From positions 1 through 48,060 of the forward strand of contig CADBIO010000002.1 of the NCBI GenBank assembly GCA_902794835.1: DNA of 48,060 nucleotides, written 5' to 3'. Origin of the DNA: an uncultured Erysipelotrichaceae bacterium. Lineage in GTDB: Bacteria > Bacillota_I > Bacilli_A > RFN20 > CAG-826. Each line of letters begins with the position of its first letter. Within the stretch, counting starts at the first letter, position 1. The translations under genes and the position numbers were made by a program. Under the pieces are notes generated by a model, which saw nothing but the letters and a program-made list of their open reading frames with translations, was not told the DNA's origin and did not search any database. Shown piece by piece: positions 4,300-44,833 of the stretch.

Positions 4300-4545
4300 A
4301 CGCTGACATTCCTTCCTGGCGAAATTATGGGCTACAAAAACATCAAAGTCAAACCTTAAATATCAAGATTTCATCGATAGTTTTTATAACTTCAAGAACT
4401 CGTTATGAAGACGAGGAACGAAATCTTTTTTTGCAAATTAATTGAATGTCCAGGCCTTATGCTTTTTAATTTACAAGTCCAAATATTTTATTTTCCCAAA
4501 AATTGGGAAATAAAAATAAGCGGAATCAAAAAAGAGGATAAAGGG

Positions 4546-7347
4546 ATGCTGAAACTAGACCACATTACGAAAATTTATCGCACCAAGGATATGCAGGTCG
4601 ATGCATTAAATGATGTTTCCCTTGCTTTCCGCAAAAATGAATTTGTTGCTATTTTGGGTCCTTCTGGATGTGGAAAGACGACGACTTTGAACATCGTTGG
4701 TGGGTTGGATCATTACACCCACGGCGATTTGGTGATCGATGGCGTTTCCACCAAAGATTTCAAAGATCATGATTGGGATGTTTATCGAAATCATAGGGTT
4801 GGATTTGTTTTTCAATCCTATAACTTAATTCCTCACGAAAATATTCAAGAAAACGTCGAATTAGCCCTAACGATTGCAGGTCTTAGCAAAGAAGAACGTT
4901 CCAAAATGGCGAGAGAGGCTTTAGATCGCGTCGGTTTGGCGGGAATGTATGGGAAAAAGCCAAACGAACTTTCTGGTGGTCAATGCCAAAGAGTCGCCAT
5001 CGCCAGAGCTTTGGTAAACAAGCCAGACATCCTTTTGGCAGACGAGCCGACTGGCGCCTTAGATTCTGTCACCTCGGTTCAAATCATGGATCTCATCAAA
5101 GAGATTTCTCAAGAAAAACTGGTCATTATGGTCACCCATAACCCAGACTTGGCCGAGAAGTACGCAAACCGCATCATTAACCTGTTAGATGGCAAAGTGG
5201 TGGGGGACACCAACCCCTATTCTTTTGAAGAGGAGGCCAAAGAGCGTGATGCCGTGACATCAAAATCTGAAGAGCAACTTGCCAAAGAACGGGCAAAGAT
5301 GTCCTGGTGGACCGCATTCAAACTCTCCGCTAAAAACTTGCTTTCCAAGGCCAAACGGACCTCTTTGATTGTTGTCGCCTCTTCTATTGGCATCGTTGGT
5401 GTTTCGGCCGTTCTTGCTGTTTCCCAAGGCGTGACTGGCTATATTGGAGGAATGCAGGATGATATGTTGTCGGGTTATCCGGTGACAGTTGCCGAATCTG
5501 CCTACGATTTGAGTTCGATTCTTTCGGGGACGAATTCTATGGAACAAGTCAATGCCGTCGCTCATTCCTGGAGGGACGGAAAGATCGACGTTCAATTCGT
5601 CACCGAAACTTTGGTGAACGTTTCTGACAGCATGAGTTCGGCTGCCTTGAAAAATGAAATTACGCAAGACTACATTCAATTCGTTGATGACATGCCCAAA
5701 AATTATTACGCCGCACTAGGAAAAGAATATGGCATCAACTTGAAAAACAATCTCTATACTCATTCGGACATTCACTTGAAAGATTACACCGAAGAACAAT
5801 TGAGGACCCAAAAATATTCCATCACCGCGATTACCTCCATCTGCAGCACCATTTTGGAGAACATCAACGATGGAGATTACTCGGCTTATTCTGCGATGGT
5901 GGATCAATATACCGACGCCATCAACCAATGTTTGCCAGAAAAAGAATACGTTCTTTCCCAATATGATGTGGTTTCTGGCAAATATGCCGAAGGTGAAAAC
6001 GAGATGATGATTGTCTTAAACCATCGGAACCAATTGACGGAATTTGTCCTTACTTTACTTGGATATTATGGCCAAGATGAATTCGCGAACGCGATTTATT
6101 ATTACTCTGACCAAAAAGAAAAAATGGATATGGATCTTTGGGAAAAGCAACAATCTTTCACCATTGATCAATTAGTAGGAAAAGAATACACGTATTACCC
6201 CAATAATTCCTTATACACTTATAACAGCAGCTATGATGCAGGCTCAACCACCAACCCTTTGGCGTGGCAGGCATATGATTATGCGTTCGTTGATGATGGT
6301 TCTTTAACCAATGGAGAAAATATGAAGGTCGTAGGAATTCTTGCCCCAAAAGAAGAGGTTTCCTATGGTTGCATGGATTCGGGTCTGTATTTTACCAAAG
6401 CCTTTGCTGAGCACTACCTTGAGCAAAACATGGAATCGGAAGTCACGAAATTCATCAGAGCTTATTGTGAAACCAATCCGGATGCTGATGGATTTACTTC
6501 CGCGGTCATCAATTTCTCCAATCACAAATTTATCTCCGGAATCGGTTTCATTTATGATGTCAACTTCCCAGACGGAATCGGATCTTCCAGCATCCAAACA
6601 TTTGAAGGCGCTGGCTTAATTGGCGAACAAAACGCCTTATCTGGCATCATGAGTTTAATTGGCGGTGGTGGATCAGGCGGTTCTTCCTCAAGCATCCTTC
6701 TACAGAAGATGGCATTATGCACCCTTAGAGATGTCGGTGGGAATTCTCTTCCAGGAACGATTAAGATCTATCCGAAGAGTTTTGCGGATAAATATTTGGT
6801 CACCGATTATTTAGATCGTTGGCAAAGCGAAGAAACCATTACTTTGTCGACGGGAACGGTTTTGACTCCCGACCAACGTAACGACATCAAATATACAGAC
6901 AATCTTGCCATCATCATCGCATTGATTAATGGGGTTATTAATATTGTCACGATCGCCTTGGTTGCATTCACCTCCCTTTCTTTGATTGTTTCCACCGTTA
7001 TGATCGGAATTATCACTTATGTGTCTGTTATGGAACGTGTCAAAGAGATCGGCGTCATTCGTTCTCTGGGTGGAAGAAAGAGGGACGTGTCTCATCTATT
7101 TAACGCAGAGACTTTAATCATCGGATCCCTATCTGGGGTGTTTGGATTAATTGTCACTTATTTATTTGAAATCATTTTGAACGCCACCATAGGGGTTTAT
7201 TATGGCATTGGCATGATTGCCAATCTCAGTTGGTGGACTGCCGTTGTAATTCTTGCGTTAAGCGTTGCCTTAACAATGATTGCCGGCATCATTCCGGCCA
7301 GAGCCGCGGCTAGACAAGACCCTGTTGTAGCGTTACGGACTGAATAA
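4546..7347 (+). CDS. MacB/FtsX-type ABC transporter, fused ATPase-permease
   Basis: Walker A GPSGCGKT, LSGGQ, ILLADEPTG, VTH; C-terminal ERVKEIGVIRSLG...AARQDPVVALR; start at ATG 4546 after AAGAGG. Confidence 0.92.
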   Translation: MLKLDHITKIYRTKDMQVDALNDVSLAFRKNEFVAILGPSGCGKTTTLNIVGGLDHYTHGDLVIDGVSTKDFKDHDWDVYRNHRVGFVFQSYNLIPHENIQENVELALTIAGLSKEERSKMAREALDRVGLAGMYGKKPNELSGGQCQRVAIARALVNKPDILLADEPTGALDSVTSVQIMDLIKEISQEKLVIMVTHNPDLAEKYANRIINLLDGKVVGDTNPYSFEEEAKERDAVTSKSEEQLAKERAKMSWWTAFKLSAKNLLSKAKRTSLIVVASSIGIVGVSAVLAVSQGVTGYIGGMQDDMLSGYPVTVAESAYDLSSILSGTNSMEQVNAVAHSWRDGKIDVQFVTETLVNVSDSMSSAALKNEITQDYIQFVDDMPKNYYAALGKEYGINLKNNLYTHSDIHLKDYTEEQLRTQKYSITAITSICSTILENINDGDYSAYSAMVDQYTDAINQCLPEKEYVLSQYDVVSGKYAEGENEMMIVLNHRNQLTEFVLTLLGYYGQDEFANAIYYYSDQKEKMDMDLWEKQQSFTIDQLVGKEYTYYPNNSLYTYNSSYDAGSTTNPLAWQAYDYAFVDDGSLTNGENMKVVGILAPKEEVSYGCMDSGLYFTKAFAEHYLEQNMESEVTKFIRAYCETNPDADGFTSAVINFSNHKFISGIGFIYDVNFPDGIGSSSIQTFEGAGLIGEQNALSGIMSLIGGGGSGGSSSSILLQKMALCTLRDVGGNSLPGTIKIYPKSFADKYLVTDYLDRWQSEETITLSTGTVLTPDQRNDIKYTDNLAIIIALINGVINIVTIALVAFTSLSLIVSTVMIGIITYVSVMERVKEIGVIRSLGGRKRDVSHLFNAETLIIGSLSGVFGLIVTYLFEIILNATIGVYYGIGMIANLSWWTAVVILALSVALTMIAGIIPARAAARQDPVVALRTE

Positions 7348-7365
7348 AATAAAAATGATCGTTTC

Positions 7366-7390
7366 AAAGGCGCCTTATCGCGCCTTTTTT
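7366..7390 (+). terminator. Intrinsic terminator of ABC transporter gene
   Basis: AAAGGCGC-cttatc-GCGCCTTTTTT. Confidence 0.85.
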
Positions 7391-7403
7391 CATTACGAGA
7401 AAG

Positions 7404-7429
7404 AAAAAAGATGCCATTACGACATCTTT
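7404..7429 (-). terminator. Intrinsic terminator ending the candidate sRNA
   Basis: Minus strand AAAGATGTC-GTAAT-GGCATCTTTTTT. Confidence 0.8.
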
Positions 7430-7553
7430 CGGAAATCAAGGTTTTCCTAGCCCCGTTTAACAAACGCGACGAGGCGAGGACTATATAGGCATATGGCGGA
7501 TCCTAAACTAACCCAACTATCCTTACGGTAGTAAGACCCACTTCTGTTCCTGT
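7404..7553 (-). ncRNA. Candidate stand-alone structured small RNA (family unassigned)
   Basis: Sigma-A-like promoter upstream, several stems with G-U pairs on the minus strand, and its own terminator; no plausible ORF. Confidence 0.65.
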
Positions 7554-7559
7554 GCAAAT

Positions 7560-7587
7560 ATTATAATCATTTTTTAATTGAATGCAA
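7560..7587 (-). promoter_or_regulatory. Sigma-A promoter for candidate sRNA
   Basis: Minus strand TTGCAT-N16-TATAAT. Confidence 0.7.
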
Positions 7588-7607
7588 GCGGTTTCATCAA
7601 AGTCAAT

Positions 7608-8168
7608 TTATCGCGGGTATTTTGCTCCTCTCGTTCCCGGATAAATCGTTTTGAGTCCTTCCTCCCCTAGAAGGTTTCTTACGATCGCTTCGGCAAACTC
7701 GATCGTGTAATACATTGAATGTCCTGTAATGATGTTTCCATCTACGACCGCCCCCGTTTCCAAATAAGTCCCTTTTCCGCATTGGAAGCCGGGGAAACAG
7801 GTGTATTTCTTGCCATCTAAATAACCTAATTCCCCTAAAATTGAAGGACCAGCACAAATGGCAAAAATCTTTTTCCCCTCGTTATGGAATTTTTTGATGG
7901 CTTCCATAGCGAGGCTTGATTTCTTGATGTTTTCCACTCCTAATTTACCACCAGGAATCACCAAAAAATCATAAGACCCAAAATCTGGCATATCTCCTAA
8001 AAGGCCCTGAGAGATCATTTCCAATCCCATAGAGGAAATGACATTCAAATGATCTGAAATGGAGAGGTACGTGACATCAATTTCATGGGTTCTTGTCAAA
8101 ATATCATGGGTGCCGATGGCTTCGGTTTCTTCGAACCCATCTGCCAATAACATTAATCCTTTGATCAT
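7608..8168 (-). CDS. DJ-1/PfpI (YajL/ThiJ-like) protein
   Basis: LADGFEETEA, LVIPGG, FAICAGP nucleophile Cys; SD AAGGGAG. Confidence 0.9.
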   Translation of the reverse strand: MIKGLMLLADGFEETEAIGTHDILTRTHEIDVTYLSISDHLNVISSMGLEMISQGLLGDMPDFGSYDFLVIPGGKLGVENIKKSSLAMEAIKKFHNEGKKIFAICAGPSILGELGYLDGKKYTCFPGFQCGKGTYLETGAVVDGNIITGHSMYYTIEFAEAIVRNLLGEEGLKTIYPGTRGAKYPR

Positions 8169-8188
8169 GTTTTCTCCCTTTTGAAAAG

Positions 8189-9088
8189 TTAGTAACTTCT
8201 ATCCCAGATAGCGTGCGCCGCATCTGGATTGTCAATAAACGGGTTGCGGTTTTTCTGGATGCCATATACGGCTTCGTTACGTTTTATTTCTTTCTCAGAC
8301 ACCGGATCTTTATCGTTCCATTCCAGGTAGGTTTGAATTGCCCACGAAGCCAAACTCGGGAATGAGTTTCGTGAAAAGGCGTCATAACTCCAATCCGCCA
8401 TTTTGTCTTGATAACGAGTGACGAAATAGAAATAGGTTCTCGCAAAATCGCCTTTGTATTCGTCAACAACTTCGAAGACGGTTTTGTTATAGCCGTGGTT
8501 GCTTCCTTTTCCTAATTTTCCTCCGTTATGAGAAGTGTAGGTAGCCGTAGAAACGTTTCCGTGTGGGTAATTGCTTCTTTTGTTATTGACGTAAGCGTCT
8601 GTCGGATAGACATGGAAGAGGTCCGAACGCATCGGAGAGTTTTTGCTGAAGATAGACTGAGGGATCGTGTGTTCGCGATTGAATCCATCCCCCTCCTCAG
8701 AATAAGAGCCGCAGAAACCAGAACTATAAACGTATCTTTCGTTGGAATACATATCCCATACCGTGCCGTTTGATGTGATGTCTGTCGTCTTATAGGCATT
8801 TAGCAATCCATTGTATCCGACATCTTTTGTGCCGGTGCTGATGGTTTTGAATAATGCGGTTTTCAAGGCAGCCCCAGTAAGACTCCAATCCACGTTTTTG
8901 TAATATCCTTTCGGTTCAGGGGAAGGGGTGGAAGAATTACTGGAGGAAGAGGTTGAGGAGGTCGTTGATTGCTCAGTGCTAATCGACTGGCTTTCCGTGC
9001 TTGCGGGTTGACTCTCTGGTGAGCAAGAACCCATGATTAAGGCAAACAAAGATAAGGTGGAAAAAAATTTAAGTCGATGCGGTTTCAC
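8189..9088 (-). CDS. Secreted lipoprotein nuclease, endonuclease I family (Bsn/YurI-like)
   Basis: Lipobox IMGSC, Ser/Thr linker, NREHTIPQS, SDLFHVYPTD..VN..RSN, KGDFAR, QKNRNPFID; likely GTG start at 9088. Confidence 0.85.
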   Translation of the reverse strand: MKPHRLKFFSTLSLFALIMGSCSPESQPASTESQSISTEQSTTSSTSSSSNSSTPSPEPKGYYKNVDWSLTGAALKTALFKTISTGTKDVGYNGLLNAYKTTDITSNGTVWDMYSNERYVYSSGFCGSYSEEGDGFNREHTIPQSIFSKNSPMRSDLFHVYPTDAYVNNKRSNYPHGNVSTATYTSHNGGKLGKGSNHGYNKTVFEVVDEYKGDFARTYFYFVTRYQDKMADWSYDAFSRNSFPSLASWAIQTYLEWNDKDPVSEKEIKRNEAVYGIQKNRNPFIDNPDAAHAIWDRSY

Positions 9089-44757: not shown

Positions 44758-44833
44758 GGGACATTAGCTCAGCTGGGAGAGCGCCTCGTTCGCAACGAGG
44801 AGGTCGACGGTTCGATCCCGTTATGTTCCACCA
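44758..44833 (+). tRNA. tRNA-Ala (anticodon CGC)
   Basis: Cloverleaf: GGGACAT/ATGTTCC acceptor with G3:U70, CCTCG-TT-CGC-AA-CGAGG anticodon arm, TTCGA T-loop, A73, encoded CCA; TATAAT at 44741. Confidence 0.97.

Follow-up and report, generated by a model that had tools for sequence, protein, structure and literature searches.

What is encoded in the gap between a DJ-1/PfpI gene and a convergent gene for a fused ABC-FtsX protein, where neither neighbor's reading frame extends and yet promoter and terminator signals are readable? An earlier note on the window (the whole 48,060-nucleotide stretch of DNA analyzed here) had placed there, on the minus strand, an orphan structured RNA some 150 nt long, equipped with a promoter and a terminator of its own. 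The source genome of the window, referred to below as G000, measures 1.39 Mb and is 91.6% complete. The genes and signals on which the answer depends are the following.

7608-8168, minus strand: DJ-1/PfpI gene, identified by Pfam, with its stop codon TAA at 7610-7608
7582-7587, minus strand: -35 box TTGCAT, read in the sequence (TTGCAA in most relatives)
Between TTGCAT and TATAAT, minus strand: promoter spacer of 16 nt, read in the sequence
7560-7565, minus strand: -10 box TATAAT, read in the sequence
7402-7553, minus strand: predicted small RNA transcript of about 150 nt, both ends placed by inference
7400-7430, minus strand: intrinsic terminator from the terminator scan, with stem 7421-7430 paired to 7406-7415, loop GUAAU, then a U run
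4405-7347, plus strand: fused ABC-FtsX gene, identified by Pfam, convergent to the RNA

The two flanking genes are arranged as the earlier note had described, and the promoter that it had read on the minus strand, TTGCAT-N16-TATAAT, is present in the sequence with both boxes kept in the relatives. The likely start is A7553, a purine located 7 nt after the -10 box, in agreement with the transcript previously predicted from about 7553. About 125 nt of GC-balanced sequence separate A7553 from the terminator stem-loop, and the 3′ end would fall in the U run near 7402. The terminator was rightly taken to be separate from that of the ABC-FtsX gene, since the latter lies at 7366-7387 on the plus strand and that of the RNA at 7430-7406 on the minus strand. 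Furthermore, no minus-strand terminator was found between the DJ-1 stop codon and the RNA element, so that the RNA's terminator probably closes the upstream operon as well.

With only three of six positions of TTGCAT agreeing with TTGACA, the promoter of G000 escapes a consensus scan; the scan does call the orthologous TTGCAA-16-TATAAT (10/12) in two relatives, G015 and G022. Among the 16 aligned loci, TTGCA of the -35 box is invariant and the -10 box is TATAAT in 14 and TATATT in the other two (G056 and G059), unlike the 16-nt spacer and the flanks, which vary freely. The loci of all 16 relatives have a terminator hairpin, with energies between -8.6 and -13.3 kcal/mol and a tract of six or more U behind it; the stem sequences vary by lineage and are wholly different in G056/G059. 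Altogether, promoter boxes, transcript region and terminator are conserved in 16 genomes and 5 metagenome contigs. A promoter and an intrinsic terminator of its own, conserved apart from the flanks, are what distinguishes a stand-alone small RNA gene, and both were found here, for a gene that is single-copy in the 1.39-Mb G000 genome. We therefore consider it highly probable that 7402-7553 on the minus strand is a real, separately signaled, structured RNA gene.

The comparison with metatranscriptomes comprised four runs, with assembled contigs throughout. Two contigs from RNA runs (X18 and X19; two runs, one sample) match the window over 7589-9001 with 95-99% identity; their resemblance to it stops exactly at 7589, at the -35 box, and some 190-220 bases unlike the window follow. 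This hints that a close strain differs structurally at the RNA promoter, by a strain-level rearrangement. Another RNA-run contig, X20, carries parts of the DJ-1 and enolase genes, and contig X16, probably of DNA origin, spans the RNA with a depth like that of the flanks. The RNA-run contigs skip 7383-7556, and contigs cannot show transcript ends.

How widely is this element distributed? By BLAST, full-length homologues with 75-82% identity occur in 16 of the 78 genomes of the genus, G000 included, together with five further short matches at chance level (E 0.001-0.005). The covariance model R1, built from the 16 homologues, returned the same 16 genomes with one copy each (135.8-177.8 bits; in G000, 7404-7555 at 151.8 bits). 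Another five copies came from a metagenome scan, each confirmed by a model score of 136-178 bits, and the homologues cluster in about five lineages. An exact motif scan in which each prokaryote species was represented by a single genome picked out the 15 relatives and no other. In a sample of the order (151 genomes, 47 genera, 8 families) there were two model matches, G000 and one genus-mate; no copy turned up in 140 genomes of the order that are not carriers, nor in the other 46 genera sampled, and no homologue was found in the phage and plasmid collections searched. Several public records that carry the locus (L052-L066) are titled with unrelated taxa, and these labels are unreliable.

Ranked by their match to G000 enolase, the top 15 genomes of the genus (857-901 bits, 86-92% identity) are precisely the 15 other carriers, the next genome having 830 bits. 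The RNA is present in all 16 sampled members of this subclade, even in assemblies that are 62-71% complete, a pattern consistent with an RNA that is inherited vertically and retained. No match to the RNA was obtained downstream of enolase in ten non-carrier genomes, of which five were searched under default filters with a cut-off of E≤1 and the other five with the filters off; in the filters-off search, which covered the syntenic region of the five next-closest genomes, the best score was 8.6 bits (E 2). Moreover, in DNA identity between G000 and G015, the RNA (80.6%) is, on this measure, as conserved as the enolase gene (81.4%), with the flanking genes at 69-70% (endonuclease I 70.2%, ABC-FtsX 69.2%).

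A single-sequence fold of the minus strand reaches -46.4 kcal/mol, with a z score of -1.59 and 13 of 200 shuffles as good; the z score of the plus strand is +0.27. One sequence alone is weakly more stable than chance, and the case for structure rests on the comparison between species. RNAalifold and all 16 single-sequence folds converge on a common architecture, whose elements are listed here.

7487-7551, minus strand: 5′ domain, from RNAalifold and per-species folds
7549-7551 with 7487-7489, minus strand: helix P0, 100% paired
7542-7548 (AACAGAA) opposite 7490-7495 (CAUAUG), minus strand: invariant internal loop inside P0
7533-7541 with 7496-7504, minus strand: helix P1, 9 bp, 100% paired in 20 distinct sequences
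7508-7531, minus strand: inner hairpin P1b/P1c, CUACC-G-UAA with UUG-GG-U-UAG, 100% paired
7517-7522, minus strand: hexaloop GGAUAG of the inner hairpin
7445-7480, minus strand: P2 hairpin, with an outer and an inner stem and a 12-nt loop at 7457-7468
7477-7480 with 7445-7448, minus strand: P2 outer stem UCCU/AGGA, whose register shifts between lineages
7469-7475 with 7450-7456, minus strand: P2 inner stem GCCUCGU/ACGGGGC, 7 bp
7431-7444, minus strand: A/U-rich linker from P2 to the terminator, unpaired in 16/16 minimum-energy folds and partly conserved

When 21 sequences (20 distinct) are aligned with the model, standard pairs occupy 99.2% of the cells, a value biased towards the model by the way such an alignment is made; in a MAFFT alignment, with a slightly larger structure model, 92.7% are paired. 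Six pairs are changed on both sides (30 cells), and none of 500 shuffles reaches the covariation score. As a control, sliding the partners by one to three columns lowers pairing to 30-47%. Compensatory changes from several lineages exist only in P1 and in the P2 inner stem: the former has three compensated pairs (A-U/G-C, U-A/C-G and U-A/C-G), each arising in different lineages, and in the latter one pair is C-G in 14 sequences, U-A in 5 and the intermediate U-G in 1. The inner hairpin has one pair turned from C-G to G-C, in the G056/G059 lineage, and support for P0 is weak because its single compensatory change comes from that lineage alone; for both elements the comparative support, as read from the alignment, is thin. 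In turn, an all-against-all column scan makes many non-helical column pairs appear to covary. These signals are spurious, since the G056/G059 lineage differs at many sites, and with one lineage driving the signal the scan is unusable for pseudoknots or long-range pairs.

The strand can be decided from the same data. Invariant U-G pairs in the RNA would be A-C mismatches on the other strand, and the functional strand is therefore the minus strand. The earlier note had reached this strand by G-U pairs and by a GNRA loop; the former argument stands, fitting the minus strand alone, and the latter finds no support in the relatives.

Indeed, when the pairings proposed in that note were counted on the 16 aligned sequences, they fared unevenly. 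Its 10-bp helix, GUGGGUCUU/AGGAUCCGC, is retained as nine pairs that are 100% paired, three of them compensated, with the tenth (A-U) formed in only 3/16. The hairpin CUACC-GUAA-GGAUAG with its GNRA loop has its top two pairs failing or gapped in six of the 16 (two G-G mismatches, two C-A mismatches and two deletions), unlike the inner hairpin, in which CUACC takes a partner further 3′ and is paired in all 16; the GNRA version is broken and the inner hairpin intact because the first loop base is variable or deleted in 4/16 sequences. UAGUCC/GGGCUA is paired in 72.9% of the cells and its register differs from that of the conserved P2. CGUUU/AAACG (58.8%) is specific to G000, and the closing pairings GGAA..AAG/CUU..UUCC (73.4% and 67.9%) lack covariation. 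Finally, the possible pseudoknot UGGGU/GCCUA has 93.8% of its cells paired and shows no double change; it is disrupted in G056/G059, and it is in competition with the better-supported helices P0 and inner hairpin.

Does the element belong to a known family? A cmscan search of Rfam 15 (4227 models), the check that had been suggested at the outset, finds no family over the RNA at the gathering score or at E≤10. At the gathering score, the whole window contains a tRNA at 44758-44830 and nothing else. At E≤10, the region 7300-7700 yields just STnc40 (28.3 bits) and isrK (14.5 bits), on the plus strand at 7303-7390, which are look-alikes of the ABC-FtsX terminator and not homologues. Across four orthologous loci, the sole match touching the RNA is a sub-threshold Moco riboswitch (RF01055) in one of the four, with 20.1 bits (E 0.65) where at least 36 are needed, spanning only the promoter and the first 58 nt or so of the RNA; this candidate was discarded. 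ARAGORN reports no tRNA or tmRNA gene over 7000-8000. A blastn-short search of the RNA against the G000 genome returned chance 12-14-mers and no long match or complement, which speaks against a tracrRNA, an antisense pair or a repeat family, and there is no indication of a self-cleaving ribozyme. Four sequence words taken from the RNA do not occur in the readable supplement tables of PMC8040213, and no description of it was found in Rfam 15, in the part of the literature consulted or in those tables. The view of an orphan structured minus-strand RNA of about 150 nt thus holds, with signals and fold conserved and without a known family.

What could such an RNA do? The explanation that we favor as a whole, and to which we give about even chances, is that of a stand-alone structured small RNA gene, restricted to one lineage and acting in trans. 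A housekeeping-type promoter, TTGCAT-N16-TATAAT, would start the RNA near A7553, and a constitutive intrinsic terminator would end it near 7402. The transcript would fold into a long irregular 5′ hairpin comprising P0, the AACAGAA/CAUAUG loop, the 9-bp P1 and the inner hairpin capped by GGAUAG; next would come the P2 hairpin with its 12-nt loop, then the unpaired A/U-rich linker and the terminator. The RNA would have arisen in, or be recognizable only within, one subclade of an uncultured genus of gut and rumen Bacilli, and would regulate in trans, its partner most likely being bound by the invariant unpaired segments, namely the 5′ ACAGGAACAGAA, the CAUAUG strand and the two loops.

As to the nature of this partner, our first guess, which falls somewhat short of an even chance, is base pairing with an mRNA in trans, independently of Hfq; some other function, or none, takes up what remains beside the readings weighed here. 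Genes for Hfq and CsrA (PF02599) were not found in G000 at its completeness of 91.6%, and any base pairing would therefore be Hfq-independent, as it is for small RNAs in other Firmicutes. When five conserved segments were compared by RNAduplex with 1,223 crudely defined start regions of G000, none went beyond dinucleotide shuffles (10, 3, 10, 1 and 11 of 20 shuffles as good, per segment). Pairing with the start region of a GH2 beta-galactosidase gene, which neighbors the RNA in most carriers, was inconsistent over 13 species, in which between 2 and 88 of 100 shuffles did equally well.

The strongest competitor, though on the unlikely side, is that the RNA has a protein or a small molecule as its partner in place of an mRNA, serving as a decoy, a scaffold or a free-standing aptamer, the near-invariant internal and hairpin loops being the predicted binding surface. 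About 60 positions of the RNA are invariant, loops and inner hairpin stems included, which is more than pairing alone demands; the RNA is conserved as strongly as enolase, and the RNAduplex search gave no convincing mRNA target. Nevertheless, at a divergence of only about 20-25%, invariance is weak evidence, no gene for an RNA-binding protein is kept beside the RNA, the RNA has just one or two conserved GGA motifs, and neither CsrA nor Hfq was found in G000. A CsrA/RsmA sponge in particular is unlikely, given that no CsrA gene was found; a single invariant GGA is unpaired and the GGA of the loop varies.

The genomic surroundings raise a different possibility, that the RNA works in cis, as an attenuator or riboswitch-like leader controlling read-through into GH2, the G000 copy being an orphan left behind after GH2 moved. 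In 13 of the 16 loci, GH2 is on the same strand and begins 49-64 nt after the U run of the RNA terminator, its identity being confirmed by Pfam in G015 and G022 only. In G015 the order is enolase, endonuclease I, RNA, GH2 beta-galactosidase (975 aa) and the convergent ABC-FtsX gene. GH2 is not directly downstream in G000, G056 and G059. In G056, where enolase, DJ-1, a lipoprotein of the tyrosine phosphatase family, the RNA, a convergent gene of 263 aa, an HTH gene and GH2 follow one another, GH2 is still about 1.6 kb downstream, which can be counted in favor of a leader, although the intervening convergent gene, one of two genes in between, separates it from the RNA. G000 has enolase, endonuclease I, DJ-1 and the RNA, then ABC-FtsX directly. 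Its GH2 orthologue (63% identity) is on another contig (C33:1153-4077), 21 nt behind a gene for a 322-aa membrane protein and with no RNA upstream; the GH2 gene has changed place in this genome, and the RNA has kept its promoter, fold and terminator without it.

Other observations also speak against a leader, and we regard this reading as improbable. The 5′ half of the terminator has no conserved competing partner: in folds of all 16 sequences truncated before the 3′ half, it is unpaired or engaged in weak, non-conserved pairs, so that no alternative antiterminator pairing is apparent. The terminator stems change among lineages whereas the upstream RNA does not, and there is no riboswitch match in Rfam. 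A terminator-type riboswitch or attenuator accordingly fits poorly, with GH2 following in 13/16 loci and not in all, and the antiterminator pairing absent. A softer argument is that the gap between RNA and GH2 has, by eye, a promoter-like pair TTGnnT-N17-GAnAAT in 13/13 loci; being below the threshold of the scan, this pair is weak enough to be cited on the side of the leader too.

A related idea, to which we give slightly less credit still, is that of a sensing RNA, with a compact aptamer-like fold for a metabolite or a protein, once located before GH2 and now also free-standing and acting in trans. A sugar-linked RNA sensor of this kind, if true, would be without close precedent.

That the transcript is a small mRNA, in which AGGA-N6-AUG/GUG at 7541 would begin a short peptide, is barely credible: a Shine-Dalgarno-like AGGA does stand 6 nt before GUG (AUG in 13/16 relatives), but the frame has 12 residues in G000 and its like, its stop does not survive a change of the P1 partner (UAG to UGG, compensated on the opposite strand), a 1-nt deletion shifts it in G001 and G081 (2/16), substitutions track helices rather than codons, and no other plausible or conserved ORF of at least 20 aa exists in 7390-7600.

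Equally far-fetched is a divergent housekeeping RNA (6S, SRP, tmRNA or RNase P) missed by the Rfam models, for which it can be said that the 6S model RF00013 has no match in G000. The RNA is present in merely 16/78 genomes of the genus, ARAGORN finds no such gene, and the SRP RNA of G000 (RF00169) is elsewhere, at C12:23643-23740 with 66.1 bits, none being detected at this locus. Sub-threshold 6S-like matches occur away from the RNA in 11 of the 78 genus genomes, the carriers G087 and G042 among them, at 22.8-39.2 bits against a cut-off of 46.4 (e.g., G053 C13:5770-5925 and G051 C1:100722-100877), and are probably a short, divergent 6S RNA that belongs to this lineage. In the folds, the RNA examined here forms two distinct hairpins and leaves its ends unpaired, in place of the 6S rod with a central bubble. 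The earlier statement that the RNA is not a tRNA, a tmRNA, an SRP RNA or a typical 6S RNA is thus borne out by ARAGORN, by Rfam and by the fold.

Returning to the trans-acting small RNA that we favor, the nearest systems would be RoxS and RsaE, which we take to be Hfq-independent trans-acting small RNAs of Firmicutes. The likeness includes a length of about 100-200 nt, an own housekeeping-type promoter, two or three stem-loops, an intergenic location and an unpaired segment before the intrinsic terminator. However, the present RNA has neither sequence nor covariance-model similarity to that type, lacks C-rich seed motifs and is restricted to one subclade of one genus. The raiA motif RNA, a free-standing, conserved and structured RNA of Firmicutes whose internal loops are conserved and for which no biochemical function is known, offers another comparison, sharing these traits with the RNA described here; the latter is shorter, has a simpler fold and a far narrower distribution, and matches no Rfam model, the raiA family being presumably among those scanned. 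Terminator leaders and riboswitches have the same succession of promoter, structured RNA and intrinsic terminator, with the GH2 order in 13/16 loci, but this RNA has no antiterminator and no known aptamer, and in G000 it is kept without the downstream gene. The abundant 6S RNA resembles it as a stand-alone regulatory RNA of 150-200 nt, and differs as a closed rod with a central bubble.

We read the RNA as a new family-level case of a lineage-restricted bacterial small RNA. Such RNAs, without known function, are common, and this one constitutes a solid, unsurprising addition. Its hosts are uncultured gut and rumen Bacilli with reduced genomes (1.0-1.9 Mb), whose regulation is almost uncharted. 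Retained in the whole subclade and conserved like enolase, it would be a concrete candidate regulator, and the 21 sequences, the structure and the covariance model provide seed material for a new RNA family. Furthermore, the putative ancestral position beside a beta-galactosidase gene supplies a first testable guess at the pathway.

Some additional observations concern the surroundings of the gene. Upstream of the -35 box, most carriers have direct repeats of TTTAC (or TTAC) with an 11-bp period, in two or three copies, about 45-70 nt upstream of the RNA start (L023-L035 and L038; e.g., G083 C6:36568-36600). G000, whose DJ-1 gene lies directly against the promoter, lacks these repeats, which may be a transcription-factor site. 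A Pho box was considered and rejected, TTTAC-N6-TTTAC not being enriched relative to the reversed pattern in five carrier genomes; a triple TTTAC-like copy found elsewhere in G081 and G014 precedes a membrane-protein gene and not a phosphate gene. Overlapping the -35 box, ATGAAACCGCTTGCA (7583-7597, minus strand) fits what we take to be the degenerate consensus of the catabolite-responsive element, a resemblance that may be due to chance, since L067, the closest metagenome copy, no longer has the central CG. As for enolase, in nine non-carriers (G002, G013, G016, G018, G046, G047, G048, G060 and G061) it is matched in two adjacent pieces, query 1-229 and 210-433, within one open frame of 471-579 aa, which suggests an insertion or a local duplication.
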